This document shows positions 1 to 30,265 of a DNA stretch of 37,070 nucleotides, in pieces. This DNA is from Candidatus Ryanbacteria bacterium. GTDB taxonomy: Bacteria; Patescibacteriota; Minisyncoccia; Ryanbacterales; GWA2-47-10b. How positions within the stretch are numbered: the stretch's first letter is position 1; each line of letters starts with the position of its first letter. The stretch is taken from contig SICQ01000003.1 in the NCBI GenBank assembly GCA_009691385.1, forward strand, positions 1 through 37,070, written 5' to 3'. Under the pieces are notes generated by a model. It worked only from the letters and a program-made list of their open reading frames with translations, ran no database searches and had not been told where the DNA came from. Made by a program: the position numbers and the translations under genes.

Positions 1-170
1 TGCTCGTGTGGTAAATCGAGCAAAGTTTCTGCGTGCGTTTTTGGTATCACCATTGTATGCCCTAGTGTGCGCGGATGAATATCGAGAAACGCAAAGACGG
101 CATCGTCCTCATAGACTTTATCCGCAGGAATCTCACCTTTGGCGATTTTGCAAAAAATACAGGTTTCCAT
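1..170 (-). CDS. hinT: HIT family nucleotide hydrolase (5' part; runs off the left edge)
   Basis: Not in the ORF track. Manual minus-strand translation from the ATG at 170 gives METCIFCKIAKGEIPADKVYEDDAVFAFLDIHPRTLGHTMVIPKTH..., the typical HinT N-terminus (CxFC, FLDI.P...GH..VIPK.H). Confidence 0.93.
   Translation of the reverse strand, partial: METCIFCKIAKGEIPADKVYEDDAVFAFLDIHPRTLGHTMVIPKTHAETLLDLPHE
137..161. repeat. Direct repeat copy 1 (hinT codons CIFCKIAK)
   Basis: ctttggcgattttgcaaaaaataca, 24/25 identical to 528-552. Confidence 0.92.
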
Positions 171-171
171 T

Positions 172-501
172 TCACCAGTGCCACCCACTACCACCAAAAA
201 TAAAAATACTAGTAAGAAGTAAAATAATACTGATTATGAGTAAAGACGAATACAAGAAAGAATGAAAGGGTTGTTCGTCTTCTCTAATCCATCTCCAAAG
301 TGCTACCAAAAATGGTGGTAGCCCAATGAGAAGCGAGAATAGTATAAAAAAGGATGATATGCCAACATAAGCGCCGAAATCTAAAAACCCTCGTTTATCA
401 TAATTAAAAAACCAATCATAAAAATTAAGTAATACAAGTACCCCATTTACAATAGAAAGTATTTTTATAAGCCAGTAATTTCCGTTGAGTATTTCTTTCA
501 T
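172..501 (-). CDS. Small AT-rich integral membrane protein, unknown function
   Basis: 109 aa with about 3 hydrophobic segments; TATAAT lies 6 nt before the ATG. Confidence 0.75.
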   Translation of the reverse strand: MKEILNGNYWLIKILSIVNGVLVLLNFYDWFFNYDKRGFLDFGAYVGISSFFILFSLLIGLPPFLVALWRWIREDEQPFHSFLYSSLLIISIILLLTSIFIFGGSGWHW

Positions 502-519
502 ATCCTTATTATAGGGCGT

Positions 520-561
520 TTATTTTTCTTTGGCGATTTTGCAGAAAATACAATTTACCAT
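520..561 (-). pseudogene. Truncated duplicate of the hinT 5' end (MVNCIFCKIAKEK-stop)
   Basis: The minus strand reads ATG GTA AAT TGT ATT TTC TGC AAA ATC GCC AAA GAA AAA TAA and contains repeat copy 2 (528-552). Confidence 0.85.
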
Positions 562-791
562 ACAAAAAAGAGGTTACTCAAGATAAAAAGCATAGAAACT
601 ACAATAATAGCTAACACGATTGTACCAACACGCCAAATACTTTTCATGACGCTTTCTTTTCGTGTCTTTCTTAGAAAATATGAAAAAGTGGTCAACAACA
701 AGACAGCGACTATAACAAAAAAAATAAAGCTTACCCAGAAAAGCCCTGCTCCATAGAACATATCGCTTTTCAAATATGCCATGTTGCTCAT
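555..791 (-). CDS. Small 2-TM membrane protein, unknown function
   Basis: 78 aa with two hydrophobic helices separated by a basic loop (RKTRK). Confidence 0.7.
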   Translation of the reverse strand: MSNMAYLKSDMFYGAGLFWVSFIFFVIVAVLLLTTFSYFLRKTRKESVMKSIWRVGTIVLAIIVVSMLFILSNLFFVW

Positions 792-805
792 GATATTAGA
801 CTAAT

Positions 806-1645
806 TTACAAACGCTTTTTTGTATATACTTCGTGCATTGCACTCACATCATCGTGGAGGCGTACGATGCGTGGGCTCAAAGTCTCTACAATGTACTGCA
901 TAAGCGCTTTGAGATCTTCTAATTTTTTGCGCGTTGAGATATTGCCCTGCGTATAAATATACAAATGCGTACCCTGAAAACCAAACTCAAAAGACTTTGC
1001 CTTATCCAAAAGAGCCTCTGCAACCTCAGGTGTAAAAATCTGGAGCGCCTCTACCTCGTAATCTTCTTGAACATACAAAGTGAACTGTTTATCAAACGCA
1101 TTGTGTAGTTGTAGCTTTTTTTGCCCGCGAGATACAAACTCATTGGCATCCCAAAAACCGGCTTTTTCTACAGATATTGTAGGAAGAGCTCCGCTATACT
1201 CAATCTCACAAACCGTGTACGGATGATGCTGACGATTTTTACCCGAACCAGTAGAAAAATCATAATAAAATATACGTATCGGGTTGTCTCGATACCTACC
1301 ACTCACTACATCAGTCATCTTGCGTCCATTGCCCCTTTGGAAAAGTGCGCCGTCCAAATTCGTAAGCGATCCGTAATATGCATAGATAAAATTGTTCGCG
1401 CGGGCGAATTGTTGCATAAAGAGATGTGACATTTTGTTACGCACATACATCCATGTGGCAAGCGGAATAAAAAATACAATACCGAGCGAGTCGTGAGTAT
1501 ACCCCTTGTATATAAGAAAAAATCCGAGCATGAGCGGTAGTATGCCCAAAAAGAAAACCCCGAGCGGGTGATCTTTTATATATTTAAATGTGCTCTTATT
1601 GACGTCCTCGATCGTCTCGGTGATCAAATCGTTTTGTTCGGTCAT
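806..1645 (-). CDS. Membrane-anchored hypothetical protein (DUF3137-like)
   Basis: 279 aa with two N-terminal TM helices, then a soluble domain (YDFSTGSGKN, FDKQFTLY...EVEALQIFTPE). The family is recalled, not searched. Confidence 0.65.
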   Translation of the reverse strand: MTEQNDLITETIEDVNKSTFKYIKDHPLGVFFLGILPLMLGFFLIYKGYTHDSLGIVFFIPLATWMYVRNKMSHLFMQQFARANNFIYAYYGSLTNLDGALFQRGNGRKMTDVVSGRYRDNPIRIFYYDFSTGSGKNRQHHPYTVCEIEYSGALPTISVEKAGFWDANEFVSRGQKKLQLHNAFDKQFTLYVQEDYEVEALQIFTPEVAEALLDKAKSFEFGFQGTHLYIYTQGNISTRKKLEDLKALMQYIVETLSPRIVRLHDDVSAMHEVYTKKRL

Positions 1646-1647
1646 AT

Positions 1648-4065
1648 CTAAAGACCTGCGATATCTTCAGCGCTAAATCGAAACGTATCACCGCGTTTAA
1701 GCTTTCCTTCCAAAATCTTTTTGGCGATCACTTGTTCGACACGGTCAGCAATAGCTCTCCGCATAGGACGCGCGCCAAATGTCGGATCGTACCCGATCTC
1801 AACGACACGCGCGGCAAGCTCTGGTGTCGGCTCAAAGATAATTTCTTGTTTTTGAAGTCTCTTCATTAAATCTTGCAAAAGCAACATTGCTACTTGGGTC
1901 AACTCAGACTTGTCGAGCGGGCGGTATACAATAGTCGCGTCAAAACGATTTAAAAGTTCGGGTGAGAAAATGCGCTCTCTTCGAATCGCATCGATCACGC
2001 GCCCTTCGATATCTGCGAGCTCTTTTCCTTCTTTGAGTAAGTCCCAAATAATATTGGCGCCTGCATTTGAGGTGGCGATAATCATCGTCTCGCGCGCAGA
2101 AACTTTTTTACCTGCACCATCGGAGAAAAGCCCTTCATCGAGAATCTGTAAAAAGAGATTATGAACTTCGTGGGATGCTTTCTCAAACTCATCAAACAGC
2201 AACAGAGAAAAAGGTTTTTCGCGAAGGCGTGATACGAGAATACCGGGATCGTGCGCATCGCGCGAACCAATCAGTTTTTCAATACCATCAACGCCTTGAT
2301 ATTCAGACATATCAAACCGAAACATTGATTCCTCCCCACCAAAATAGGTAAATGCCAACGCTTTTGCGGTCTCGGTCTTGCCAACGCCCGTAGGTCCTAA
2401 AAATAAAAATGATCCTACGGGTCGCGTGCTGGCACGAAGCCCTGAGCGCGCTCTGCGCAACGCATCAGATACTGCATGTACTGCTCGCGCCTGCCCGATC
2501 ACGCGGGCGCCTATCAATTCTTCGAGATGCAAAAGCTTTGACCTCTCTTCTGGCTCGGCAATGGTCGTAGGTATATGCGTCTTTTTTTCTACCACCGTAT
2601 CGATATCAGAAGGCATAATCACAATACGATCGGTCGGTACCGCTGATGCGGCTTGCTGTAAAAGATCGATAGCCTTTTCAGGCATAGCACCAGTTGTGAT
2701 AAATCTATCGGCGAGTTCATAGGCACGCAAAAGCGCGGGATAGGTAAAAAACTTTCTTGTATGTGGCTCGATGACACCGAGCGCATCTTGCAACATACCG
2801 AGCGTACGCTCCCGCGTGGGCTCTTCGAGTGTCACTTTTTCAAAAAGCTTCATAATCTTGCCGTTTGATTCGAGATCGCGATGAAATGAATCTGTATCAG
2901 AGAGCGCTACTATCTGTATCGCTGAACCAGCCATATATGGCTCGAGGAGTGTGACTACATCGACGCCAAGCTCATGGGCTGAGGCAATAAAGCTCGGAAA
3001 GTTTTCTATAACCAAAAGGATATTGCCAGCACCAACCGCTTCGTTAAACATTTGAATCATCAAACTCTCAAAGGCGCCTTTGGTCTGCGCTCCAGCAACA
3101 ACCGACGAGCTATCAAAAAATACCACCCGTTTGTGTTCGAGCGCCGGATGCGCGTGACCAGTGCGAATCCACTCTGCGAGACCCTCAAGTACCGCGTGCT
3201 TGCCCGAACCCTCCTCACCTACCAACAGCACATTGGCTTGCGCGTTGCGTGCCAGCACTTCTTCTACGCGCTCAATCTCATCTTTACGCGCTTCTCGTGC
3301 AAAATGCGTCGTGCCGTATGAAAGATCATGCGAATACTGATTAAGCGTCCATGTGTAACCGTATCCCAAATCTTTTCCAATGCCCGGTATACGCGCGAGT
3401 CGAGCGCGGCTCCACCAGCGTGTGCGTGCGTATTCTTCTTCAAATTCGGCCTCTACCCACAAAGCCGCCCCTTCCAAATCTTCGCGCTTTACCTCGTGCG
3501 CAAATAAAAATTCGGCAAATGATGTATCTGCGTCAATCGCAAATACCAGTACGCGCGCAACTGACAATGCATGACTCTCTCCTACGATCGCCTCAATAGT
3601 TGCTTGCGGCGCGTTTGATGTTTGATATATTTTAAACCACGCATCAAAATCCCCGCGCGCGATACCAAGACGAAAAAGCAAAAGATGAAACGCGTCGGTG
3701 TCTGCAAGCGCGCGCCACCATTCACGAAATGAAAGCTTGTCATCGGGCCCACGTGGCATGAGCGCCCACAGGCGTAGTATCTCGGAAGATACCTTGATGC
3801 GCCCCGAGCCAATCGAGACCATCTCGCCCGTGAGCGCCGTACGATAATAAAACTCAAGAAACCCAAAAAAGAAGAAAAATGAGAATGCTATGAGCCCCAT
3901 GCCTCCCGCCACATTGATATATGGAATGTTGACGGGCAATATGTTTGCCGCAACAAAAAATCCAACACCCGCGATACCTACAAATAAAAATATTTTGACG
4001 AGCATCCCACGCGCGCCCGTCGAGAGGGCCTGCTCAATGCGTAAAATATGTCTCTGCGGGATCAT
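1648..4065 (-). CDS. Membrane-anchored ClpA/ClpB-like (Hsp100) double AAA+ ATPase
   Basis: D2 has GPTGVGKT, FDEFEKA, TSN, PELLNRFD and GARPMRR; D1 has GEEGSGKH; two N-terminal TM helices. The likely start is the ATG at 4065, 1 nt after the upstream stop; the track start is 4077. Confidence 0.9.
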   Translation of the reverse strand: MIPQRHILRIEQALSTGARGMLVKIFLFVGIAGVGFFVAANILPVNIPYINVAGGMGLIAFSFFFFFGFLEFYYRTALTGEMVSIGSGRIKVSSEILRLWALMPRGPDDKLSFREWWRALADTDAFHLLLFRLGIARGDFDAWFKIYQTSNAPQATIEAIVGESHALSVARVLVFAIDADTSFAEFLFAHEVKREDLEGAALWVEAEFEEEYARTRWWSRARLARIPGIGKDLGYGYTWTLNQYSHDLSYGTTHFAREARKDEIERVEEVLARNAQANVLLVGEEGSGKHAVLEGLAEWIRTGHAHPALEHKRVVFFDSSSVVAGAQTKGAFESLMIQMFNEAVGAGNILLVIENFPSFIASAHELGVDVVTLLEPYMAGSAIQIVALSDTDSFHRDLESNGKIMKLFEKVTLEEPTRERTLGMLQDALGVIEPHTRKFFTYPALLRAYELADRFITTGAMPEKAIDLLQQAASAVPTDRIVIMPSDIDTVVEKKTHIPTTIAEPEERSKLLHLEELIGARVIGQARAVHAVSDALRRARSGLRASTRPVGSFLFLGPTGVGKTETAKALAFTYFGGEESMFRFDMSEYQGVDGIEKLIGSRDAHDPGILVSRLREKPFSLLLFDEFEKASHEVHNLFLQILDEGLFSDGAGKKVSARETMIIATSNAGANIIWDLLKEGKELADIEGRVIDAIRRERIFSPELLNRFDATIVYRPLDKSELTQVAMLLLQDLMKRLQKQEIIFEPTPELAARVVEIGYDPTFGARPMRRAIADRVEQVIAKKILEGKLKRGDTFRFSAEDIAGL

Positions 4066-4066
4066 A

Positions 4067-4456
4067 TCAAAAAACAATCATCCATACGCCACTGATAAAA
4101 AGTGCGGGAATGGCTATGGGACTCAAAAGTGCGGCGGCCACAACGATAAAGCCGATTACAAACGCCCCTACTTGCACAACTAATCCTGCGCTAATAAAAA
4201 CCAGCCGTACGAGCGCGCCCACCACACGCATCAAGATATTGACTGCAAATACTTCAAAAATATCTTCGAGATCAAACCCTTGTTTTTTCTGTTCGCGCAT
4301 ACGGTGAAAGGGCGCGAACAGACTACGGGCAAGTTCGGGAACGGAAAAGAAATGCAGTAAAAACCACTGCACATTCATCCACGCCTCAAACATCAGCACG
4401 AGCCCCGCCTCGTACTGCCACCAAAGATATTCCCCCGCAATGAGGGCACTATTCAT
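4067..4456 (-). CDS. Small membrane protein coupled to the Clp-like ATPase
   Basis: 129 aa with a Trp-rich amphipathic N-terminus (YLWWQY, FFSVPELARSLFAPF) and a long hydrophobic C-terminus; TGnTATACT lies 6 nt before the ATG. Confidence 0.8.
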   Translation of the reverse strand: MNSALIAGEYLWWQYEAGLVLMFEAWMNVQWFLLHFFSVPELARSLFAPFHRMREQKKQGFDLEDIFEVFAVNILMRVVGALVRLVFISAGLVVQVGAFVIGFIVVAAALLSPIAIPALFISGVWMIVF

Positions 4457-4468
4457 ATAAATAGTATA

Positions 4469-5158
4469 TCACGCGCCAAATCTTCGTTCACGGCTTTTGA
4501 AATCTTTTATAGCACCTTCAAAGTCATCAGGCGTAAAATCGGGCCAAAGCTTTTCGGTGAAATACAACTGCGCGTCCGCTGTATCCCACATCATAAATCC
4601 CGCTGATAAGTGTGAATCACCGCCGGTACGAATCACGAGATCTACGGGCGGAAGATCGCGCGTCCATAAATATTCTTTTGGAGAGGTAAATGGTTTATCA
4701 GACGCCACAGCCGCTTCAAATGCTCGCGTCATTTCTGTCTTGCCGTCGTAACACAGCATTAAATTCATGACATGTTTTTTACGGTCTTTGGTCTCTTTTA
4801 TAAGTCGCTCGCCAGTCTCTACCAGTTTTTTAGGAAACAACGAACGCCACTCGCCTACAATCGATATGCGTACATCGTTTTCTTTGAGTCGTGGATTTTC
4901 AAGCGCGTCTAAAAGAGCCTTTGAGAAAGCTTTGAGGAGAAATTCGACTTCAGCAGCTGGGCGTTTTTTGATATTATCGACGCTCATCCCCCAAAAAGAC
5001 ACACAAAAGATATTGAGTTCGAGCGCGCGATCAATGACTTTTTCATATGCGGTAATACCTTCTTTGTGTCCGAGCCACGGGAAGAGACTTCGTTCCTTTG
5101 CCCACCGGCGGTTGCCGTCAGGAATGATAGCTACATGCCCTACGGAGTAATCTTGCAT
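4469..5158 (-). CDS. uppS: Undecaprenyl diphosphate synthase (cis-isoprenyl transferase)
   Basis: Motifs HVAIIPDGNRRWA, DLVIRTGG...LSAGFMMW, LWPDF and RERRFG. The start is either MQDYS (5158) or 5179. Confidence 0.95.
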   Translation of the reverse strand: MQDYSVGHVAIIPDGNRRWAKERSLFPWLGHKEGITAYEKVIDRALELNIFCVSFWGMSVDNIKKRPAAEVEFLLKAFSKALLDALENPRLKENDVRISIVGEWRSLFPKKLVETGERLIKETKDRKKHVMNLMLCYDGKTEMTRAFEAAVASDKPFTSPKEYLWTRDLPPVDLVIRTGGDSHLSAGFMMWDTADAQLYFTEKLWPDFTPDDFEGAIKDFKSRERRFGA

Positions 5159-5254
5159 GATGTTCTCTAGTATAGCCATAGAACGCTTTGTAGGGAAGAT
5201 TTGGCTCGGGACTTTTCGTATGAGGACAAAAATGATACGATGACCGCGTCATAC

Positions 5255-5326
5255 GGCCCTATCGTCTAATGGTTAGGACAGCGCTCTTTCAAGGCGTAAA
5301 TCCGGGTTCGATTCCCGGTGGGGCCG
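5255..5326 (+). tRNA. tRNA-Glu(TTC)
   Basis: Acceptor stem GGCCCTA/TGGGGCC, anticodon loop CT-TTC-AA, T-loop GTTCGATTC; no encoded CCA. Confidence 0.95.
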
Positions 5327-5361
5327 CTTATAAAAATAAACGAGCGTGATACACTATATCT

Positions 5362-5619
5362 ATGAATATGGAAATACCAAAAAATCCCAATGAAGAGTTA
5401 GGCGAATCTCAGGAAGCCGCCCCTCGCCTTGAGGTGGGGGCAACTGTTCGCGTACCGAGAAACAATGGTGAATATATTGAGGAAGGCTGGAGAGTGCTCG
5501 GCTACAATCCAGACAACGATACCTACTCTGTGCTAAAAGTGACTAGTATAGAAGGTACCGACAATGCGAAATTTGAGAAAAAGGCGGTGCGGCGCGCGGA
5601 GCTGGAAAGTCTCAACTAA
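5362..5619 (+). CDS. Small acidic hypothetical protein (possible SH3/Tudor-like beta-barrel)
   Basis: 85 aa (LEVGATVRVPR...GWRVLGY...TYSVLK); TGnTACACT lies 6 nt before the ATG; located between two tRNAs. Confidence 0.7.
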   Translation: MNMEIPKNPNEELGESQEAAPRLEVGATVRVPRNNGEYIEEGWRVLGYNPDNDTYSVLKVTSIEGTDNAKFEKKAVRRAELESLN

Positions 5620-5646
5620 ATACTCTAGAATAAACGCGTTGTTTTT

Positions 5647-5718
5647 GCGCCCTTAGCTCAGTGGTAGAGCGTTTGCATGACACGCAAAAGGCCGGAAGTT
5701 CGATCCTTCCAGGGCGCA
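5647..5718 (+). tRNA. tRNA-Val(GAC)
   Basis: Acceptor stem GCGCCCT/AGGGCGC, D-arm TAGCTCAGTGGTAGAGC, anticodon arm TTTGC-AT-GAC-AC-GCAAA. Confidence 0.95.
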
Positions 5719-5734
5719 CACTTATTAAATTTAG

Positions 5735-6193
5735 TTAAACAGCTGGAGTTGAAGACTGGGTCGAGACGACAGCCTCTTCAGTATTAGTTACAAACTTTTT
5801 GCTTACCAGATAAAATGCTGCCAGGCGAAAAATGTAGTCCGCAATATTCCATAAACTAGAAACTCCAAAAAACGATCTAGTAAAGGACCCCATCGCCACG
5901 AATGCCCCCGTAACTAAAAAGAAGTAAATGCTCGATAACAAGACTATTTTGTCTTTTTCCTGGATTATATATGTCTTTTGTAAATATCGAGCCGAATAAA
6001 TCACTCCGAGTACTATAGCGAGAATACTTATAACAAGCTCGACTACCCATAAAACCGTTGAGTCAATCGAACCTATTTTTGGAAAGATCATAAAACTATA
6101 AACCAAACTCACGATAAGTGGCACAACGAAACCCGCGGTTAGGTAATGCGTTGCGGCGATATACCAACTCGCAGAGGCTTTTTTTGTTTTCAT
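5735..6193 (-). CDS. 4-TM membrane protein, unknown function
   Basis: 152 aa with four hydrophobic segments; AT-rich; convergent on tRNA-Val. Confidence 0.75.
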   Translation of the reverse strand: MKTKKASASWYIAATHYLTAGFVVPLIVSLVYSFMIFPKIGSIDSTVLWVVELVISILAIVLGVIYSARYLQKTYIIQEKDKIVLLSSIYFFLVTGAFVAMGSFTRSFFGVSSLWNIADYIFRLAAFYLVSKKFVTNTEEAVVSTQSSTPAV

Positions 6194-6285
6194 AAAAGTT
6201 TCTACTTTTAAATAATTAGCCGACTTACTGTCAGTATATCAATAACTAGCTATCACTATAAAGGTAAATTTGTTAATATCCCATC

Positions 6286-7350
6286 ATGCTTAAAGGTAGC
6301 CAAGACCTTACAATCTTAGGCATCGAGACCTCGTGCGATGAAACCGCCATCGCGGTTGTTGACGCGTCGGGCGGGCTTGCCTCACCTAAGTTTCGTGTGC
6401 GCGCAAATATCATCTCCTCGCAAATCAAAATGCACGCGCCCTATGGTGGCGTGGTACCAAACCTTGCCAAGCGCGAACATATCCGTAATCTGCCAATTAT
6501 CCTTGAACAAGCGCTCCGTAAGGCTGGTATTGGTGATCCGCAAAAAGAAATAAATGCGATAGCAGTCACCGTAGGCCCCGGCCTTGAACCCGCACTTTGG
6601 ACCGGTATTACCTTCGCCCAAAAATTAACACAAGAATGGAATCTGCCGGTGGTGGCAGCCAATCATATGGAAGGGCATTTAGTAACACCGCTTCTGGGCC
6701 CGCGTGTATCAAAAGTGGCCTTCCCGCTCATAGCACTCTTAGTGTCAGGTGGTCATACCGAGATCGTACTTGTAAAATCATGGGGTAAATATCAGGTGCT
6801 GGGTGAGACGGTAGACGACGCCGCGGGTGAAGCATTTGATAAAGTAGCACGCATGCTCGAGCTACCGTATCCGGGTGGACCCGAGATAAGCCGTCTCGCG
6901 CGTACCGGCAACCGCTACAGCTTTTCATTCCCCCGCCCAATGTTACAACAAAAAAATTATAACTTTAGTTTTTCAGGCCTGAAAACCGCCGTACTCTACC
7001 AACTGCGTGATTTGCGTGAACAAAAAATTCCTTTTAGTAAAAATGATATTGCCGCATCGTTTGAAGATGCGGTTATCGATGTACTTATGCTCAAAACCAT
7101 GCGTGCGGCAGCCGAACACAAAGCAAAATCCATCATCGTTGGCGGAGGAGTCGCAGCAAACACGCAGTTGCGAGCACGCATGCGCGATGCGGTAAAAAAA
7201 GAAAAACAAAACCGCGCGCTCTATTTGGCACCGCTCTCGATGACGGGAGACAACGCGGCAATGATCGCGGCATCGGCATATTTTCATGCGGTTTGTGATG
7301 ATTTCGCCAACTGGAAAAAGCTCGAAGCGCATGCTACGCTCCCCTTATAA
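6286..7350 (+). CDS. tsaD: tRNA N6-adenosine threonylcarbamoyltransferase
   Basis: Motifs LGIETSCDET, GGVVP, GPGL, NHMEGH, LLVSGGHT, DDAAGEAFDK, FSFSGLKT, GGVAAN and DNAAMI. Confidence 0.97.
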   Translation: MLKGSQDLTILGIETSCDETAIAVVDASGGLASPKFRVRANIISSQIKMHAPYGGVVPNLAKREHIRNLPIILEQALRKAGIGDPQKEINAIAVTVGPGLEPALWTGITFAQKLTQEWNLPVVAANHMEGHLVTPLLGPRVSKVAFPLIALLVSGGHTEIVLVKSWGKYQVLGETVDDAAGEAFDKVARMLELPYPGGPEISRLARTGNRYSFSFPRPMLQQKNYNFSFSGLKTAVLYQLRDLREQKIPFSKNDIAASFEDAVIDVLMLKTMRAAAEHKAKSIIVGGGVAANTQLRARMRDAVKKEKQNRALYLAPLSMTGDNAAMIAASAYFHAVCDDFANWKKLEAHATLPL

Positions 7351-7361
7351 TAAAAGTACAA

Positions 7362-9521
7362 ATGAAACTCGAAGACCTCCCAAAAAGTTACGAAGCGTCC
7401 GCACACGAAGACGAAATCTTTCGCCTCTGGGAATCCTCAGGGCTTTTTAATCCCGATACCCTTCCTGACGCCGGCGCACGTCAACCATTTTCACTTATGA
7501 TGGCGCCGCCCAATATCACCGGGCACATCCATGTAGGCCACGCGCTCGAAAATATCATCTCTGATGTCATCGTCCGCCGAAAACGCGCGGAGGGTTTTCG
7601 TCCCCTCTTTTTACCGGGCAAAGACCATGCGGGTATCGCGGGTCAATTCGCGGTTGAAAAAGAACTCAAAAAAGAAGGGGTGACGCGTCAAACGCTTGGT
7701 CGCGAAAAATTTGCCCTGCGCGTCTGGGAATATATGCGTGAGATTGGATCAAATATCGATCAAGAACTCAAGCACCTCGGTATCTCTGCTGATTGGTCAC
7801 GTGCGCGCTTTACGATGGATGAAGAGTACCAACACGCCGTCGAACAAGTATTTTTGCATTATCACGAAAAGGGTTATATCTATCGTGGTAAGCGCGTGGT
7901 CAATTGGTGTTCTCGTTGCCAGAGCACCATCTCGGATCTCGAGATAACCTACAAAGAAGAACAGGGTAAGCTCTATTTTATCCAATATGGTCCGGTAGTT
8001 GTCGCGACCACCCGCCCCGAGACCAAGCTCGGTGACACCGCACTCGCGGTAAACCCCAAAGATGAGCGTTACAAAGACTATACGGGCAAGACGATGACCA
8101 TCGAATCAGTCGACCCTGATACCAAAGCTGGCAAATCACCGCGCAAAAAAGAATACGAATTGCCAGTCGTAGCCGATGACGCAGCTGATATGTCATTTGG
8201 CTCAGGTATCATCAAAGTCACCCCTGCGCACGATGTCGCTGACTTTGAGATTGCTTCCCGTCATCCAGAAATCAAAACGCTTGAGATCATCGGCACCGAT
8301 GGCCGTATGACCGAAGCTGCAGGCGCGCGTTTCGCCGGCATGAAAGTTGCCGAGGCCCGTGAAGCACTGGTAAAAGATCTAGAAGAACTTGGATTACTTG
8401 TAAAAATAGAAGACCTTGATCACTCGATCGGTATTTGTGATCGCTGCGAGACCGTCATCGAACCACTACTCTCTGACCAATGGTTTGTAAAGATGGACAA
8501 GCTCGCCGACAAAGCTCGTAAAGCGATTGAGAAAAATAAAGTCACTTTTGTACCACCCAACCGCAAAGACATGATGCTCGATTGGGCAAAAAATCTGCGT
8601 GATTGGAATATCTCGCGACAGCTGTGGTGGGGTCACCGCATCCCCGCGTGGCACTGCGAATGCAAAGAAAACGAAGAATGGCGCGTGGGACTCGTAGCGC
8701 CCGCTGATCTCTGTCGCCGTTGTAAAAAACCGTGGAGTCAGACTGATGATGTGCTTGACACATGGTTTTCGTCAGCTCTCTGGCCCTTTGTCACCCTTCA
8801 TTGGCCGGATCAGACTACTGATCTGAAAGACTACTACCCTACCGCACTCATCTCCTCTGCGCGTGAGATTTTTTATCTGTGGATTTTCCGCATGCTGTTT
8901 TCTGGTCTCGAGTTTATGGATGATGTGCCATTTAAAACTGTCTATACCCACCCGACCATCCTCGATAAAAACGGCCGTAAGATGTCAAAATCAAAAGGCA
9001 ATGTCGTCGACCCGATGAAATTGATTGAAACATACGGCATTGATGCTATGCGTTTTGGTATTATTTGGCAGGCCATGGGTACCCAAGACATTCATTGGAC
9101 GGAAGACCCGCTCCGTGCCGGTAAAAAATTCTTAAACAAGCTTTGGAACTCATCGCGCTTTATCATGGTACAGATCGGCACTGACCCGCGCGAGATTAAA
9201 CGCCCAAAACCGAAAGACGATGCATCAAAAAAAGTGCTAGAGGCATGCGACGCGATGGAGAAAGCGGTCACCGACTCAATCGCCTCGTATGAGTTTGGTC
9301 AAGGGTTGCATGCTGCCTATGATTTCTTTTGGAATGACTTTTGCGCAGTGTATATCGAGGAGGCGAAGAAAAATCCTTCGCGCGAGACTCGCGATATGCT
9401 CTTTTATATACTCGCGACCTCACTTAAAAATCTTCATCCGTTTATCCCATTTGCTACCGAATACATCTGGGGACTTCTTCCGTTTGCAGAAAAGCGCCTT
9501 TTGATCGCAGAAAGGTTATAA
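7362..9521 (+). CDS. valS: Valine--tRNA ligase (short form)
   Basis: Motifs PPNITGHIHVGH, DHAGIA, TTRPET, KVTPAHD, DWNISRQLWWGHRIP, DVLDTWFSS and KMSKS. Confidence 0.96.
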   Translation: MKLEDLPKSYEASAHEDEIFRLWESSGLFNPDTLPDAGARQPFSLMMAPPNITGHIHVGHALENIISDVIVRRKRAEGFRPLFLPGKDHAGIAGQFAVEKELKKEGVTRQTLGREKFALRVWEYMREIGSNIDQELKHLGISADWSRARFTMDEEYQHAVEQVFLHYHEKGYIYRGKRVVNWCSRCQSTISDLEITYKEEQGKLYFIQYGPVVVATTRPETKLGDTALAVNPKDERYKDYTGKTMTIESVDPDTKAGKSPRKKEYELPVVADDAADMSFGSGIIKVTPAHDVADFEIASRHPEIKTLEIIGTDGRMTEAAGARFAGMKVAEAREALVKDLEELGLLVKIEDLDHSIGICDRCETVIEPLLSDQWFVKMDKLADKARKAIEKNKVTFVPPNRKDMMLDWAKNLRDWNISRQLWWGHRIPAWHCECKENEEWRVGLVAPADLCRRCKKPWSQTDDVLDTWFSSALWPFVTLHWPDQTTDLKDYYPTALISSAREIFYLWIFRMLFSGLEFMDDVPFKTVYTHPTILDKNGRKMSKSKGNVVDPMKLIETYGIDAMRFGIIWQAMGTQDIHWTEDPLRAGKKFLNKLWNSSRFIMVQIGTDPREIKRPKPKDDASKKVLEACDAMEKAVTDSIASYEFGQGLHAAYDFFWNDFCAVYIEEAKKNPSRETRDMLFYILATSLKNLHPFIPFATEYIWGLLPFAEKRLLIAERL

Positions 9522-9528
9522 TAAAAAA

Positions 9529-10887: not shown

Positions 10888-10888
10888 C

Positions 10889-10908
10889 TGGTGCCGCGGG
10901 GGTGAATC
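10889..10908 (-). repeat. Displaced duplicate of the tRNA-Phe 3' end, with CCA
   Basis: 10891-10908 equals 11003-11020 (gtgccgcgggggtgaatc, 18/18); the minus strand reads ...GCGGCACCA. Confidence 0.9.
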
Positions 10909-11003
10909 ATTTCTCTCCTCAACAAATACGGGGATCCTCGCTCGAACCGGTGGCGCTCGAATCCCTTCGATTCATTTTTATTTATATTGTCGTTCCGACA
11001 TTG

Positions 11004-11075
11004 TGCCGCGGGGGTGAATCGAACACCCGACACGACGCTCTTCAGGCGTCTGCTCTACCACTGAGCTACCACGGC
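11004..11075 (-). tRNA. tRNA-Phe(GAA)
   Basis: Minus strand GCCGTGGTAGCTCAGTGGTAGAGCA-GACGC-CT-GAA-GA-GCGTC...GTTCGATTCACCCCCGCGGCA. Confidence 0.95.
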
Positions 11076-19774: not shown

Positions 19775-20038
19775 ATGCCAAACACTGCATCAGCAACCAA
19801 GGCTCTACGCCAATCAGAGCGCCGTCGTGTACTCAATGTACGCCGCAAGCGCTCGCTTCGTGATGTCCTCAAAGGGTTTGAGAAGGCCATCCTTACCAAA
19901 AATAAGGCTGAGGCCATTAAGCTCTTGCCCGCCGTGCAAAAGGCGCTCGATAAGACCGCGAAGTCAGGCCTCATCAAGAAAAACAACGCCGCGCGGAGAA
20001 AATCGCGCCTTGCCGCACAAATTAAAAAACTCGCCTAA
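19775..20038 (+). CDS. rpsT: 30S ribosomal protein S20
   Basis: MPNTASATKALRQSERRR...ALDKTAKSGLIKKNNAARRKSRL. Confidence 0.96.
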   Translation: MPNTASATKALRQSERRRVLNVRRKRSLRDVLKGFEKAILTKNKAEAIKLLPAVQKALDKTAKSGLIKKNNAARRKSRLAAQIKKLA

Positions 20039-20913: not shown

Positions 20914-21344
20914 TTTCCTATGTAGTTTGCCTCGAGTACTTTTTTGATCGTCTCTACGATTTCCTGTGGAGTATGATGCGCCTTGATCATAAACTCTGCA
21001 GCGCCCAATTTCATCGCTTGGTCTACATCATCACGAGAACCGAGGTTTGAGATTATAATAATGGGAATTGATGCGTAGTCATGCTGCGCTTTGAGCTCAG
21101 TGAGAATCTCGAAACCACCTTTGCCCGGCAATATTAAATCAAGCAAGATGATGTGTGGCGGATTTTTGTGAACTGCGGCAAATGCTTCGTCCGCATTGAT
21201 GGCTTCGGTGACGGTAAATCCTTCGTGTTTAATCTTTTCTACTAATAGCCCACGTAAAAACTTATCATCTTCAACGACGAGTATTTTCATTTCATTTCGT
21301 TTGAGCATTGACGCGATTGGCATCGATGAGTCGTCTGTTGTCAT
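20910..21344 (-). CDS. Single-domain response regulator (CheY-like)
   Basis: Motifs KILVVEDD, LLDLILP, IIISNL and GAAEFMIK; no output domain. Confidence 0.93.
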   Translation of the reverse strand: MTTDDSSMPIASMLKRNEMKILVVEDDKFLRGLLVEKIKHEGFTVTEAINADEAFAAVHKNPPHIILLDLILPGKGGFEILTELKAQHDYASIPIIIISNLGSRDDVDQAMKLGAAEFMIKAHHTPQEIVETIKKVLEANYIGK

Positions 21345-21361
21345 AGGGCTAGACTAGCATA

Positions 21362-22516: not shown

Positions 22517-22537
22517 ACAAGTATCTTTAGTATATCC

Positions 22538-25078: not shown

Positions 25079-25526
25079 GTCTAAATCTCACCATGCGTTC
25101 AGCGCGCGCGATATGTCTAAACGAGATCCAAACGGTATCTTTGGGAAATATTTTTTTGGCGCGCTCCGCCCACTCGACGACCACGATATTTTTTGGATCT
25201 AAAATAATTTTTTTAAAGGCGATTGCGTCGAGCTCGCGTGGCGACTTGATACGATATAAATCAAAATGCCATACATTTTTAAATGTAGAACCTTTGAGTG
25301 CGTAGCGTTTTGCTATCACGAAAGTTGGCGACTGAAGTCGCCCGCGCACGCCAAGGCCGTTCGCGACACTCTGCGTAAAAAAAGTTTTACCTGCACCAAG
25401 CTCGCCCGAAAGCGCGAGGCAAAGGGCGTATTTTTTATTTCTGGCAACTGTCTTAATCTGGGCGCCAAAGAGTTTGCCGAGCGCGCGTGTCGCCTCGGGA
25501 GTTTTGAGTGCATAGGTAAGCTCCAT
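25068..25526 (-). CDS. tsaE: tRNA threonylcarbamoyladenosine biosynthesis ATPase
   Basis: Motifs LSGELGAGKT, QSPTF, HFDLYR and VVEWAE. Confidence 0.95.
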   Translation of the reverse strand: MELTYALKTPEATRALGKLFGAQIKTVARNKKYALCLALSGELGAGKTFFTQSVANGLGVRGRLQSPTFVIAKRYALKGSTFKNVWHFDLYRIKSPRELDAIAFKKIILDPKNIVVVEWAERAKKIFPKDTVWISFRHIARAERMVRFRHGA

Positions 25527-25564
25527 CGTGCCTCCAGCGTAGCAATCTTATGCTGAAAAGCAAA

Positions 25565-25627
25565 AACGACCGTTCCCATGATTGGGTTCGGTCGTTCTCG
25601 GTTGGGAGCCCCGTATGACGGGGCTCC
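25565..25627 (-). terminator. Tandem hairpins, both containing TCAT at the apex
   Basis: Minus strand: ggagccccgT-CAT-acggggctcc (25605-25627), then aacgaccg-aa-ccca-ATCA-tggg-aa-cggtcgtt (25565-25596) running into Ts. Confidence 0.75.
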
Positions 25628-25631
25628 ATGT

Positions 25632-26138
25632 TTATTCATCTTCTGACTCGACATCCTCCTCGCGGATACCGGCTGCCGGCTCGACGGTGCGTCCGCTGTT
25701 GCGGATCGCCTCATCGTAGGTGGCGCGATACTCGTCAGACTCGGTCGCATCTGCGACAGCAGACTTGCCGTCGTAGCGACCGTCTGCGCGCCCCTTGGCA
25801 CGATGACAGGCAATGTCATCATCAGCACAGCTGGTGTCCACCAACTTGGTACGGCCAAAGACAAGGCCGAGACTGAAATTGACGATCCCGAGTGGAACAT
25901 CGATCAGCCCTGGCTCGCGCTCGACCCGAATGTTTGGGTCTCTACGCTGGACCACGATCACGCGATCATGGTGACGGTAACCGCCGTTGTAGCGATTGCC
26001 ACCACCGTTCCAGCGACTGCTGTGCGAACGGCCTCCGCGCTCCCAGCACATGTTGCCGTAGGTGCAGCGGGCTTCCGCTGCAATCGGTGCGATGAGCGTC
26101 ACCATCAGAAGAATCAAGATTGAAAGAACAGTCTTCAT
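25632..26138 (-). CDS. Orphan secreted protein with a Gly/Arg/Asn-rich segment
   Basis: GGAGG SD before MKTVLSILILLMVTLIAPIAAEA (signal peptide ending AxA); consensus promoter upstream. Confidence 0.75.
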   Translation of the reverse strand: MKTVLSILILLMVTLIAPIAAEARCTYGNMCWERGGRSHSSRWNGGGNRYNGGYRHHDRVIVVQRRDPNIRVEREPGLIDVPLGIVNFSLGLVFGRTKLVDTSCADDDIACHRAKGRADGRYDGKSAVADATESDEYRATYDEAIRNSGRTVEPAAGIREEDVESEDE

Positions 26139-26199
26139 CGTAACCTCCATATCTCAGCCGAGACGCCATGCCTCGGCTAGCAGTTCAGTGTACATGGCT

Positions 26200-26228
26200 A
26201 TTATACTACCAAAAATACCTTTTGTCAA
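26200..26228 (-). promoter_or_regulatory. Perfect consensus promoter TTGACA-17-TATAAT
   Basis: -35 at 26223-26228 and -10 at 26200-26205 on the minus strand. Confidence 0.85.
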
Positions 26229-26269
26229 TACCTCCAAAAGCCCTTATTATATGCTAGGAATAAGACAAT

Positions 26270-27127
26270 ATGGGTGATTTAAAGTCAGCAATCGCATCAG
26301 CATCAGCGGTACTCATCGTACTCCCCGACTCGGTGCGTGATAAAGATTATTTGGCGGCTTTGCAGATACAGAAAATAGCGCCACAAAAAACAGAACTTAT
26401 CGCACCTGAGGCAAAAGAGCTCGAATGGAAAGATACCTTTGGTCTTGAACGCGGCAAGCGTGAATTTGTTATTGATATCAACACAGCACTCACGCCCGTA
26501 GATGAACTCCGTTACGAAAAGACTGATACTACCCTCTCGATCTACCTCTCACATAAAGGCGCCTTTAATGAAAAGGCACTTTCATGGGGTGAGCATCGCG
26601 CGCCTGCCGATCTTTTTATCACTCTTGGTTTTTCATCGGAAAGTGAGGCAAAAAAAGCAATCGAAAACCTTCCTCGCAAGGGAGCTGCGCGACATATCTG
26701 GGTAGAAGGAGATACCAATGGCCACAGTGCGCCCGCTACCACGAAACTCTCGACGATATCGGCGGGTCTTTTGGGAAGATTGGTTGTCCGTTCACGCATT
26801 GATACTGATACCAATACTCTTTGGTCATTCATCACCCGTGATGATTTTGCAAAGACAAATGCGGGTCCGCACGAACTCCCCAGTCTTATGGCTACCTATG
26901 CGTCACTCGCGTCACTACCCGAACACGCCTTAGTCTTTTGGCAACATGATGACGCGGGTACCCAAGGATTTTTTAGATCAGAGAACGCACAACTAGTGAA
27001 TGATATCGCGCGACACCTCGGGAAAATGCCAGAAAACCCACACTATGTGACACTCGCTTCGTTTGCCAACTTTATCGAGGCGGAGATGGAGACACGCAAA
27101 TTGCTCCGTGAACTCAAAGTGCGCTAG
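26270..27127 (+). CDS. Hypothetical protein, possibly a degenerate DHH/NrnA-like phosphoesterase
   Basis: The N-terminus (AIASASAVLIVLPDS..DKD) and DLFITLG resemble the DHH fold, but no DHH motif is present. Confidence 0.55.
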   Translation: MGDLKSAIASASAVLIVLPDSVRDKDYLAALQIQKIAPQKTELIAPEAKELEWKDTFGLERGKREFVIDINTALTPVDELRYEKTDTTLSIYLSHKGAFNEKALSWGEHRAPADLFITLGFSSESEAKKAIENLPRKGAARHIWVEGDTNGHSAPATTKLSTISAGLLGRLVVRSRIDTDTNTLWSFITRDDFAKTNAGPHELPSLMATYASLASLPEHALVFWQHDDAGTQGFFRSENAQLVNDIARHLGKMPENPHYVTLASFANFIEAEMETRKLLRELKVR

Positions 27128-27136
27128 AATAGAAGC

Positions 27137-28807
27137 GTGGCATTTGACGAAGAAGAACAAAAAGAAAAGCTCAGTCAACTCCAACAAAAAGAGGAGGAAG
27201 ATTTAGCTCAACTGCTTGCTAAAAGATATAAAACTCCTTATCTCAACTTGGGGCGTGCCTTTATTGATCTTGATGCGCTTAAACTTGTACCGAGAGATCG
27301 CGCCGAGGCGGCTGGTCTTGCGGTCGTACAATCAACTGGCAAAAAACTACAAATCGCTGTCAAAAATCCAACACTCGATAAAGCAAAAGAAATAGTGACC
27401 GAACTACGCCGCGATGGCTATCAGCCACAACTTTTTTTGGTATCCATGCGAAGCTTAAAACATGCGTGGGTTCGCTACGAGGAAGCTGGCGAAGAAACCC
27501 CGAGCATTACCAATGTCATTGATATTTCAAAAGATAAGATTGTTGAATTCCGCCGTGAGATAAAAACGACAAAAGATTTTGAACGGATGTTGAGTGAAAA
27601 AATCTCACAGGGTAAAACCAAACGAGTGACTGACTTGCTTGATTATGTATTAGGAGGCGCATTTGAACTTGTCGTCTCTGATATCCATGTCGAACCGGCA
27701 GAAGATGCCGTACATATGCGCGTTCGTCTCGACGGTTTACTCCAAGATATCGTGAGCTTCTCACACGATATGCACAAAATGCTATTGGTGCGCATCAAGC
27801 TTGTCTGCGAACTCAAACTCAATATTCATGATAAATCACAAGACGGCCGCTTTACTATTCGCGCAGGTGAATCTGATGTGGAAGTGCGCGTCTCAACCCT
27901 CCCCGGCCCCTATGGCGAATCGATTGTCATGCGTATTTTGCACCCACGCGCCATTGAGACATCGTTTGAAGATCTCGGTATCCACCCCGTACTTCTTGAA
28001 CTTATTGAAAGAGAAATCCAAAAACCAAATGGCATGATCATCACCACCGGCCCTACCGGATCTGGTAAAACCACCACACTCTATGCGTTTATCAAAAAAC
28101 TCAATGAGCCGGGGGTGAAGATTATCACCATCGAAGATCCTATTGAATATCACATCAAAGGCATTACCCAGACGCAAATCAATAAAGAAGCTGGCTACAC
28201 CTTTGAGACAGGGCTCTCGGCAATCGTGCGTCAAGACCCTGATATCATTCTAGTCGGTGAGATGCGCAACCGCGAAACCGCGGAGATTGGCATGCAGGCG
28301 GCACTCACTGGTCACCTCGTATTCTCCACACTCCACACCAACAACGCACCTGGCACCATCCCCCGCCTTATTGATCTTGGTGTACCACCAAATATCATCG
28401 CGCCTGCCATCAACCTTGCTATCGCCCAGCGCCTCGTGCGTATCTTGTGTCCGCACTGCAAAAAACAAATGCCGCCGACACCCGAACAAATGACAACAAT
28501 AAAAAAACTGATGGAAACTTTGCCCCAAAAATATACGCGCCCGACGCTCGACAATATATCACTCTGTACACCGGGCGGATGTGGTGAGTGTAACTTTCTC
28601 GGATACAAAGGACGCCTCGCGGTCTTTGAAGCATTTTTAATTGATGACGATATGGAGCGCCTTATCTTAAAAAATCCTTCGGAAGCAGCGGTACGCGAGG
28701 CCGCAATCGCACAAGGAATGGCAACACTCGAACAAGATGGCATCTTAAAGCTCTTGCAGGGCATCACCTCGTGGGACGAACTCAACCGCATCGTCGGTTT
28801 AATCTAA
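27137..28807 (+). CDS. pilB: GspE/PulE/PilB family type IV pilus assembly ATPase
   Basis: Motifs SDIHVEP, QDGR, TGPTGSGKTTT, TIEDPIEY, RQDPDIILVGEMR, TGHLVFSTLHTN and a CxxC...CxxC Zn motif. Confidence 0.93.
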   Translation: MAFDEEEQKEKLSQLQQKEEEDLAQLLAKRYKTPYLNLGRAFIDLDALKLVPRDRAEAAGLAVVQSTGKKLQIAVKNPTLDKAKEIVTELRRDGYQPQLFLVSMRSLKHAWVRYEEAGEETPSITNVIDISKDKIVEFRREIKTTKDFERMLSEKISQGKTKRVTDLLDYVLGGAFELVVSDIHVEPAEDAVHMRVRLDGLLQDIVSFSHDMHKMLLVRIKLVCELKLNIHDKSQDGRFTIRAGESDVEVRVSTLPGPYGESIVMRILHPRAIETSFEDLGIHPVLLELIEREIQKPNGMIITTGPTGSGKTTTLYAFIKKLNEPGVKIITIEDPIEYHIKGITQTQINKEAGYTFETGLSAIVRQDPDIILVGEMRNRETAEIGMQAALTGHLVFSTLHTNNAPGTIPRLIDLGVPPNIIAPAINLAIAQRLVRILCPHCKKQMPPTPEQMTTIKKLMETLPQKYTRPTLDNISLCTPGGCGECNFLGYKGRLAVFEAFLIDDDMERLILKNPSEAAVREAAIAQGMATLEQDGILKLLQGITSWDELNRIVGLI

Positions 28808-28838
28808 TAGCTGACTACGACAACTACTTCACTAACCG

Positions 28839-29120
28839 CTATTTGAGCAGTCTGAATACCAGCGAAACGGTTTCTCTCCGTAATATCCAAAACACCCAAG
28901 TCAGAGCTGTAGCGAACGCCAAGTTAATGGCTGCGCCGAGATAATCGAATTCTATATTGGAACCGTTATATTCTCCCTTAAATATATAAGAATTCATTGG
29001 CCATCCATAGTCTCCCCTGCAGCCAGCAATACAATCAACTGGTGCTATGGTCGCAAAAGATGGGTAGACAAAAATACCAAATAAAATTAAGAATGTGACA
29101 AATGTTAAAATATATTTCAT
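28839..29120 (-). CDS. Small AT-rich membrane protein
   Basis: 93 aa with two hydrophobic segments around a loop containing CIAGC and YGWP; TGnTATAAT upstream. Confidence 0.65.
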   Translation of the reverse strand: MKYILTFVTFLILFGIFVYPSFATIAPVDCIAGCRGDYGWPMNSYIFKGEYNGSNIEFDYLGAAINLAFATALTWVFWILRRETVSLVFRLLK

Positions 29121-29201
29121 TTGAACTTTATTATATCACTTCCTCTCGAAAGCGAATAGGAAGCTTTCTCGCAAGAATCTCCAGACAATGTGCCCATGCG
29201 C

Positions 29202-29242
29202 ATAAATGAAATGGACGTCCGACATCCATTCATTTCATTTAT
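29202..29242. repeat. REP-like palindrome, left
   Basis: aatggacgtc-c-gacatccatt (29210-29230) nested in ataaatgaaatg...catttcatttat. Confidence 0.85.
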
Positions 29243-29884
29243 CTATTCCAGCAAGGACCCTTCGAGCTCTTTGGATAAAGATTTGCGTGCAATAATATCG
29301 GCGAGGGATGCTCGCGCAAAATCCTTGTACTCCCTCGCGTCCTGAAACTGCTTGAGTATTATTGCGGTGTTACATAATTTTTTATTTGTGTTGCCAATAT
29401 ATTCTTCCCAACTACTCTTGATAGCTTGCTTAATCCCGTGCACCTCATTGTTAAGATTAATATATGCGCTCACATGAAGTAGATATTCGTTTGAGACAAT
29501 GTGAGTTGAACGAAATTTACCAGCAAACAAAACGCCGCTTCTGTTGTGTCGGTGGTTAAAATATTTTGTGTAGCCACCAACCAATCTTTTAACAAATTCG
29601 CTTACGCCGTTTTCTACCTGTTGCCGCACGAGCAAATGAAAATGGTTTGGGTTAAGACAATAACAAACGATATCTACCAATCGACCTTTACGAGATGTTA
29701 CACGACCAAGTCTTCTGTCGAGCATGTATTCGTAAATACTTCCAACGGGCTCAATCGTGTTGAAAATCTCAACGCTCTTGAGAAATCTGTTGAGATCTTT
29801 TCCATCCATGAATATCTTCCTTTTATCAACCCCGCGATTGCAAATATGATAGTGCTCCCCAGCAGCAAAGATTGTCTTTCCCAT
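29243..29884 (-). CDS. REP-associated tyrosine (Y1/HUH) transposase
   Basis: YHICNRGVDKRKIF, HUH motif YCLNPNHFHLL, YTKYFN...RSGVLF..KF and the catalytic Tyr in AYINLN. Confidence 0.92.
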   Translation of the reverse strand: MGKTIFAAGEHYHICNRGVDKRKIFMDGKDLNRFLKSVEIFNTIEPVGSIYEYMLDRRLGRVTSRKGRLVDIVCYCLNPNHFHLLVRQQVENGVSEFVKRLVGGYTKYFNHRHNRSGVLFAGKFRSTHIVSNEYLLHVSAYINLNNEVHGIKQAIKSSWEEYIGNTNKKLCNTAIILKQFQDAREYKDFARASLADIIARKSLSKELEGSLLE

Positions 29885-29901
29885 GTCTTACATTGTACCA
29901 A

Positions 29902-29922
29902 AATGGACGTCGGACGTCCATT
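29902..29922. repeat. REP-like palindrome, right (abuts the transposase -10 box)
   Basis: Perfect aatggacgtc-g-gacgtccatt; TGgTACAAT on the minus strand at 29892-29900. Confidence 0.88.
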
Positions 29923-30027
29923 ACATTACATAAAAAACAAAAATGCCCGCAGGATGTTCCGTGCGAGCCTTGAGTGAGAAAATGCGGACTCACCCCTTCG
30001 GGCTACCGTTAAAGAGTCACTTATTCA

Positions 30028-30265
30028 CTTTCTCGCAAGAATCTCCAGACAATGTGCCCAGGCATGGGTGCCACAGGCTGAAGGCCTCTTCGAGGAGCAA
30101 TCGCGCCGACCCCTCCTCGCAGAGCGCAATATGCTTTAGAATAAAGCTACATTATGCGCTGTGAGGAAGGGGACCAGATTGTCCGTGTACTAAAAGAAGG
30201 CCCAGATAAGGTAAACCTCAATTGTCTGGAGATTTTCAGGAGAAAGCCTCTTCTGAAGAACAATG
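30028..30265 (-). ncRNA. Rod-shaped structured RNA, candidate 6S RNA
   Basis: End-to-end pairing on the minus strand: ctttctc/gagaaag, 14-bp aatctccagacaat/attgtctggagatt, a central bubble, ggcc-tctt/aagaggcc, ccccttcctc/gaggagggg, gcgca/tgcgc and gcttta/taaagc. TATAAT at 30272-30277 on the minus strand. The 6S identity is inferred. Confidence 0.55.

Follow-up and report, generated by a model that had tools for sequence, protein, structure and literature searches.

The 37,070-nucleotide (nt) stretch of Candidatus Ryanbacteria DNA analysed here (the window) carries three direct repeats, each of which copies the end of a conserved gene, namely the start of hinT, the tail of tRNA-Phe and one end of a structured RNA adjoining ruvB, and encloses an insert. 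All three inserts are missing from the genomes of the same genus, and the conserved gene is preserved each time. A sequence-only reading of the window had reported these repeats, at offsets of 391, 112 and 864 nt, and the intactness of their host genes; both observations hold. Its description of the third repeat as an RNA 3′ end stands in that the repeat lies at one end of the RNA, but either strand of the RNA may be the transcribed one, so the 3′ label is not established. The three inserts differ in kind and do not represent one sort of element. We propose, as an explanation with about an even chance of being correct, that they arose through recombination anchored in the conserved gene end, with the new DNA carrying a copy of that end along with it. 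The window corresponds to contig C28 of genome G000, an 85%-complete metagenome assembly of 634 kb in 46 contigs; it was compared with three genomes of the same genus (G001, G002 and G003), with the family (ten genomes including G000) and with an order sample of 22 genomes.

The first site lies between clpC and hinT and comprises the following features:
3..170, minus strand: 5′ part of hinT (HIT family; Pfam HIT 2e-11, open reading frame (ORF) list), running off the contig, with an intact start codon at 170
137..170, minus strand: hinT start, working copy, the first copy of the site 1 repeat (repeat search)
172..501, minus strand: ORF109, an orphan small membrane-like protein, the cargo of site 1 (ORF list)
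528..561, minus strand: hinT-start stump, ATG and 11 codons and then a stop, overlapping the ORF78 stop codon (repeat search, reading)
555..791, minus strand: ORF78, a small membrane-like protein, the older cassette (ORF list)
806..1645, minus strand: ORF279, the resident cassette between clpC and hinT, at the same position in G005 (ORF list, relatives)
1648..4077, minus strand: ClpC/ClpB-like AAA+ gene (domain search)

The two copies of the repeat (137-170 and 528-561, offset 391) are 34 nt long and 88% identical, and the resulting order is clpC, ORF279, ORF78, hinT stump, ORF109, hinT. The empty form, with only 4-9 nt from clpC to hinT, is seen in G001, G003, G006, G007 and G008. ORF109 has no match in Pfam or NCBIfam and no homologue in the nine other family genomes, and no hairpin is seen at the junctions of this site in the window. 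Stumps of the hinT start accompanied by differing cargo are found in three of the 14 order genomes in which hinT was located: in addition to the 34-nt stump of G000, there is an exact 24-nt copy in G004, where the repeats enclose an antitoxin gene and a cut PIN gene with no second copy of the insert in the G004 genome, and a 46-nt stump in G015, which sits between two paralogous cassettes. G009 has a cassette at the same spot without a stump.

The second site is at tRNA-Phe:
10888..10982, minus strand: two-hairpin tRNA-tail element (covariance model R1, 76.8 bits)
10891..10908, minus strand: spare tRNA-Phe tail of 18 nt, covering T-loop to 3′ end and directly adjoining the native flank downstream (repeat search, relatives)
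10983..11002, minus strand: element spacer (comparison with relatives)
11003..11075, minus strand: intact tRNA-Phe(GAA) (tRNA search)

Here the repeat (10891-10908 and 11003-11020, offset 112) is an exact match of 18 nt spanning the T-loop to the tRNA 3′ end, and the insert of 94 nt contains no ORF. In the empty form, seen in G001 and G003, a terminator abuts tRNA-Phe, and the spare tail meets the native terminator in the window exactly as tRNA-Phe does in G003. The core of the insert is conserved behind other tRNA genes, and an alignment of ten copies supports a three-way fold in which 12 pairs show changes on both sides, with an observed covariation score that was reached by none of 500 shuffles. 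The corresponding covariance model recovered 17 matches of at least 50 bits in eight of the ten family genomes (ten of the 17 being the training copies), all of about 95 nt and sharing the fold; the element matches no Rfam family. Thirteen of these copies lie 0-149 nt behind a tRNA on the same strand, the tRNAs concerned being Phe, Tyr, Val (twice), Ser, Gly (twice), Arg (three times), Asp, Leu and Gln, and six of the 13 are closed by an exact 16-19 nt copy of the cognate tRNA tail. Some copies are orthologous across genera, for instance in the arrangement tRNA-Arg(TCG)-element-tRNA-Lys of G007 and G009. G004 has a spacer related to that of the window behind its tRNA-Leu, and G002 retains a 13-nt remnant of the spacer behind tRNA-Phe. 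Given this remnant, the element may be old in the genus and subsequently lost from relatives, and an 'empty' site is no proof of recent gain; at least one 'empty' site, that of G002 at tRNA-Phe, looks like a secondary deletion. A contig joint in X4 that skips 10909-11000 was left unused, as the joint, with just 22 letters on the shorter side, probably derives from the tRNA-Phe of other organisms.

Several variants of these tRNA-associated elements were observed among the relatives. In G001 (contig C2) two nearly identical tRNA-tail elements (L068 and L080, 36894-36989 and 38583-38678) lie 1.7 kb apart, one without a preceding tRNA and the other after a tRNA-like 3′ fragment that is not called by ARAGORN. 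In G004 (L075, contig C53) a shorter related element with different hairpins is placed between tRNA-Leu and the element at 7088-7183; it repeats 18 nt of the tRNA-Leu tail and has its spacer in common with the window element. In G002 (L063 and L069, contig C4) the 5′ ends of tRNA-Phe and tRNA-Val each bear a short palindromic hairpin flanked by two 11-nt copies of the 5′ end of its own tRNA.

The third site lies between a pilB-like gene and the structured RNA:
27137..28807, plus strand: PilB-like T2SSE ATPase gene that bounds the site 3 block on the left and directly abuts the insert (domain search)
28808..30027, no strand: block of 1220 bp, in place of which G001-G003 and a co-occurring allele have a 10-nt spacer (relatives, contigs)
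28839..29120, minus strand: ORF93, an orphan gene within the block (homologue search)
29164..29196, no strand: stump that repeats the initial 33 nt of the structured RNA, with a diverged version of the 10-nt spacer just before it (repeat search, relatives)
29202..29242, no strand: left hairpin of the Y1 cassette (palindrome search)
29243..29884, minus strand: Y1 (HUH) transposase-like gene, 213 amino acids (aa) (Pfam Y1_Tnp, 33.4 bits)
29902..29927, no strand: right hairpin of the Y1 cassette, sharing its palindrome core with the left hairpin (palindrome search)
29928..30027, no strand: 100-nt linker from the cassette to the intact RNA (sequence reading)
30028..30250, no strand: conserved structured RNA of about 220 nt, always adjoining ruvB (fold z-scores, BLAST)

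The two copies at this site (29164-29196 and 30028-30060, offset 864) agree exactly over 33 nt and at 97% over 36 nt. The RNA has fold z-scores of -5.8 and -7.0, lies directly upstream of ruvB, and gives a BLAST match in 13 of 61 genomes, including all nine other genomes of the family, with no match to any Rfam family. In G001, G002 and G003 the pilB stop codon is only 11 nt from it. Site 3 is moreover polymorphic in nature: contigs from two runs of one study (X1 and X2, which may be the source of the assembly) carry both forms, those of the empty form joining 28807 to 30028 through 10 other letters at a depth of 11.1 and 16.3 and those of the filled form having depths of 4.1-7.1, all values being per-contig means. 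Empty alleles are thus found in relatives for all three sites and, for the third, also among co-occurring contigs. ORF93 has no homologue in any of 200 other genomes of the class, and no second copy of any of the window inserts was found in G000.

The Y1 protein scores 33.4 bits against Pfam PF01797 (cut-off 23), and an HFH motif with a downstream Tyr motif, which we take to be the HUH and tyrosine signatures of this family, is visible by eye in its translation. Its match to the NCBIfam RAYT model (NF047646), at 24.9 bits, is below the cut-off of 80. The sequence-only reading had singled out this gene as the only strand-transfer enzyme of the window, which is borne out in that it is the single Y1/HUH gene present; to this we add that it lies inside the third repeat pair, so that the HUH gene is itself cargo. 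The pilus ATPase mentioned as nearby in the same reading turns out to adjoin the insert directly. G000 has this one Y1 gene, and the accompanying hairpin is found only beside it. The nearest relatives of the gene in named records are from Parcubacteria such as Giovannonibacteria, and relatives are present in 16 of the 22 order genomes, which possess several diverged copies each (paralogues 35-58% identical), every copy being bracketed by its own pair of palindromes. Gene-end repeats outside the hairpins were seen at four of 14 Y1 loci examined in the order and at six of 71 in a wider sample (80 loci from named genomes, of which 71 had enough flank), the other 65 being without. Matches between a locus's own two flanks are present at 49 of the 71 loci, mostly representing the same palindrome on both sides, as opposed to four of 71 in a control with mismatched flanks. 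Where there is a gene-end repeat, the working gene end adjoins one hairpin. Many Y1 genes of relatives hold a third copy of the flanking hairpin inside the coding sequence (L032 1671-1695, L049 1667-1686, L047 1947-1967 and others).

A scan of the genome for short direct repeats, of the kind called for by the sequence-only reading, returned 12 exact repeats of at least 16 nt spaced within 3 kb across the 634 kb, eight of them of at least 18 nt, as against means of 0.7 and 0 per genome in ten dinucleotide shuffles, which excludes chance. Four of the 12 fall in the window, one of these being a mere likeness between tRNA-Phe and tRNA-Val, and loci beyond the window are found on contigs C10, C4, C44 (a 286-nt repeat at 72%), C30 (17 nt, offset 23) and C1 (16 nt). 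Hence loci with duplicated gene ends are real yet rare, numbering about five or six across the assembly. On C10 (L182) an ORF of 200 aa lies between two copies, 92% identical, of the final 167 nt of an ABC-2 permease gene (1192-1358 and 2005-2171). The 33 nt following the gene end are also present there as two diverged versions, giving the layout gene end A, ORF200, X′, gene end B, X; the site is empty in G001. At both C10 and site 2 the native flank directly adjoins the stump. A further repeat, on C4 (L181), is a 69-nt leader-like sequence at 83% (6731-6795 and 7467-7535); it encloses 740 bp, in which a Cys-rich ORF of 93 aa is encoded, and its region is missing from relatives.

The same footprint recurs at the hinT spot and in both element families. 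Evidence on the origin of the two copies comes from the longer coding repeats, in which working copy and stump could be compared codon by codon. Across ten comparisons, 48 of 65 differing codons are synonymous and 17 non-synonymous (synonymous and non-synonymous respectively: C10, 14 and 3; L032, 7 and 2; L034, 5 and 1; L141, 2 and 0; L118, 4 and 1; L170, 1 and 1; L101, 8 and 5; L168, 3 and 0; G015 hinT, 3 and 2; G000 hinT, 1 and 2). For this count the stretches were aligned by eye, boundary codons were dropped, L034 was cut at 15 codons and L049 was left out of the sum. Furthermore, the stumps retain the reading frame and stop codon. A comparison of L032 with G009 did not single out the native copy, the two being identical to G009 at 54 and 55 of 75 positions. 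As the differences are mainly synonymous, the two copies at such loci are alleles from different lineages, and not copies made on the spot and left to decay. This points to homology-anchored import from other lineages, in keeping with the homology-facilitated integration that had been suggested from the window alone. The broader suggestion of a general, gene-preserving route for acquiring small cassettes fares less evenly: the gene-preserving additions are evident relative to the same-genus genomes, but no single general route emerges, since sites 2 and 3 represent two particular families of hairpin elements, gene-end duplications are few in the genome, most Y1 cassettes lack a gene-end repeat and the empty tRNA-Phe site of G002 looks like a deletion.

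In light of these observations, we propose that the three repeats would be footprints of separate gene-preserving additions at conserved gene ends. The incoming DNA would have brought, or been joined beside, a working copy of the gene end, leaving the other copy as a short dead stump. On one side recombination would be anchored in the conserved gene, and on the other there would be an illegitimate joint (homology-facilitated illegitimate recombination); the single crossover of a small circle would be an equivalent route. A suitable donor would be DNA of a related lineage with a different cassette at the same spot, and the cargo would comprise the orphan membrane-protein gene at site 1, the two-hairpin element of about 95 nt at site 2, and the Y1/HUH cassette with an orphan gene at site 3. 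The same process presumably underlies all three short repeats of the window, the DNA may have entered by uptake, and the hairpins or the Y1 enzyme could have had a role in forming the illegitimate joint. RecA, DprA and a PilB-like ATPase are all encoded in G000.

The closest parallel is with the 'sequential displacement' arrays of type VI secretion system (T6SS) effector-immunity modules and of Rhs/CDI (contact-dependent inhibition) orphan ends. As set out by Kirchberger et al. 2017 (PMC5361080), homology-facilitated illegitimate recombination was proposed for such stacked modules with orphaned gene ends: the anchor gene is conserved, a new cassette brings its own anchor end while the old end and old cassette are pushed aside and kept, and the copies within one genome come from different strains and not from duplication. 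The corresponding arrangement, in which the anchor stump is contiguous with the recipient-side flank and lies between old and new cassette, is seen at site 1, in G015, at C10 and at site 2. Unlike in those arrays, however, the anchors here are the hinT start, the ABC permease end, a tRNA tail and a structured RNA, the stumps are 18-167 nt long, the cargo consists of orphan small proteins or hairpin elements, and the host is an uncultured bacterium with a reduced genome that is known from sequence alone. A second parallel is the Campbell-type single crossover, in which the homologous stretch comes to be directly duplicated on both sides of the insert; in an E. coli lacZ test, 56 of 60 clones had duplications of 109-950 bp that stemmed from such crossovers (PMC3240628). 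In contrast, the homologies here measure 18-167 nt, and the gene order of site 3 does not fit the simplest circle: a circle integrating by one crossover at the 33-nt homology was considered for this site and rejected, as the gene order it predicts differs from that observed. The footprint is therefore of a known sort, occurring here on the ends of housekeeping genes and RNAs with orphan-gene or hairpin cargo. A literature search turned up no account of duplicated gene ends next to Y1 cassettes or tRNA-tail elements.

Several observations sit poorly with anchored recombination. First, an inverted match of 9-14 nt to the cognate T-loop/T-stem opens 11 of the 13 tRNA-linked elements (the palindromic T-loop contributes part of this, and the count has no chance control), and plain anchored recombination does not explain it. 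Second, where Y1 loci have a repeat, one border of the stump mostly falls 3-19 nt from a hairpin (window site 3, where it stops 5 nt short of the left hairpin, and L032, L034, L141, L168 and L170), which suggests that the element's own ends take part. Third, the insert of G004 finishes in the cut PIN gene right at the hinT ATG, inside the exact 24-nt repeats, and this requires either an already rearranged donor or a different mechanism. Fourth, in the contigs the filled and empty flanks of site 3 are identical, with 0-3 differences over kilobases, and no donor tract is visible. In addition, the joints show just 0-1 nt of microhomology by eye, the test of allelic origin requires longer or more diverged copies than those of the three window repeats, and L049 departs from the pattern of the other loci, with five synonymous as against 20 non-synonymous changes among 37 poorly aligned and very diverged codons. 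Finally, the ComEC family of Pfam was not found in the 85%-complete assembly. As the closeness of stumps to hairpins, the matched inverted arm and the hard-to-derive G004 junction are all unexplained, a mechanism driven by the elements themselves stays alive.

Such a mechanism, to which we give a distinctly lesser though appreciable likelihood, would have the Y1/HUH enzyme or some other partner insert single-stranded hairpin elements at gene ends, either copying the target stretch or carrying a replacement 'patch' for the gene end in the mobile unit, with the antisense arm of the tRNA-tail element guiding it to the T-loop. It would account for the proximity of stumps and hairpins, for the return of the same footprint at Y1 loci in the order and in the wider sample, for the hairpin-only inserts of G002 between 11-nt copies of the tRNA-Phe and tRNA-Val 5′ ends, and for the repeated cognate tails (six of 13) and inverted arms of at least 9 nt (11 of 13) of the tRNA-linked elements. 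However, 65 of the 71 Y1 cassettes have no gene-end repeat, repeat lengths vary from 11 to 167 nt, the copies differ as alleles shaped by selection, and neither a hairpin element nor a Y1 gene is present at site 1, at C10 or at the hinT loci of G004 and G015; G000, moreover, has one Y1 gene whose hairpin occurs nowhere else in the genome. The Y1_Tnp protein, the HUH and Tyr motifs and the hairpins at both ends resemble those of the IS200/IS605 and RAYT families, as characterized in the parts of Quentin et al. 2018 (PMC6006769) that treat them. IS200/IS605 elements, however, are known to insert without target duplication and to occur as several near-identical copies per genome, as opposed to the 33-nt repeat and the one copy in G000. 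RAYT/REP systems, for their part, are set apart by the low score of the Y1 protein against the RAYT model and by a hairpin that is not dispersed through G000; the same parts of that source (PMC6006769) do not describe RAYT as making duplicated gene ends, by which some of the Y1 copies here are flanked. A still wider, and in our estimation doubtful, generalization is that small hairpin elements of bacteria and archaea with reduced genomes might possess an integrase-free and gene-preserving way of inserting, both as Y1/HUH cassettes and as protein-less two-hairpin tRNA modules. They might establish themselves where essential genes terminate, either bringing a replacement end or copying one, with the tRNA-tail form reading the T-loop via its antisense arm. 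We know of no description of IS200/IS605 elements making duplicated gene ends. If hairpin elements indeed make the joints themselves, this would be a new, integrase-free mode of DNA insertion.

It is unlikely, by comparison, that the repeats are attL/attR scars of tyrosine or serine recombinase islands that have since decayed to 94-1220 bp. The classic footprint of an integrase is a repeat of tRNA sequence that extends from the T-loop to the 3′ end, and one tyrosine recombinase is indeed encoded elsewhere in G000, on contig C34. Likewise, islands and prophages at tRNA genes and icd (such as e14 and phage 21) supply a replacement gene end while the old end persists in part, and the tRNA repeat of site 2 similarly starts in the T-loop. 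Nevertheless, the present inserts are devoid of an integrase, measure only 94-1220 bp and involve many tRNAs, each with its own matched element. As had been stated in the sequence-only reading, no tyrosine or serine recombinase is encoded in the window, a Pfam scan of 40 ORFs having detected no integrase or resolvase domain, and no decayed integrase island is present at these sites in any relative examined. The 17 strong copies of the tRNA-tail element in eight genomes, all of about 95 nt with a conserved fold, also speak against this reading, and the hinT-start and gene 3′-end stumps show allelic divergence as opposed to a fixed core site.

Local replication errors within one lineage, that is tandem duplication or template switching followed by insertion or deletion, are another improbable source: although a fresh one-step duplication would give exact repeats such as those of 24 nt in G004 and of 18 and 33 nt in the window, the cargo is not duplicated elsewhere in its genome, the longer repeats differ mostly at synonymous sites, and the flanking X and X′ of C10 also resemble two alleles. 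Chance or an assembly artefact, which a fragmented metagenome assembly of 46 contigs might invite, is scarcely credible in view of the excess of repeats over shuffled sequence, the differences between the site 1 copies, which a k-mer loop would not yield, the same architectures in independently assembled relatives, and the assembly of both site 3 alleles as separate contigs in two runs.

The genomes of ultra-small bacteria have almost no spare intergenic room, which raises the question of how new genes enter without breaking essential ones. If recombination anchored in gene ends is the correct reading, these footprints give one answer, namely that new DNA arrives next to a conserved gene and brings a fresh version of the end of that gene with it, and the leftover stumps would be a record of past exchanges between lineages.

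By the profile scan of 40 ORFs, the gene content of the window is one of ordinary housekeeping genes. Within it, the structured RNA and ruvB, along with the gene that follows, make up a stretch (30028-32050) of 95-98% identity to G001, as against about 80% on both sides. This stretch was considered as the donor tract of site 3 and rejected, as the empty allele from the same runs shares it without differences; it is a recent, separate exchange between species-level lineages, with its left edge at the spacer between pilB and the RNA.

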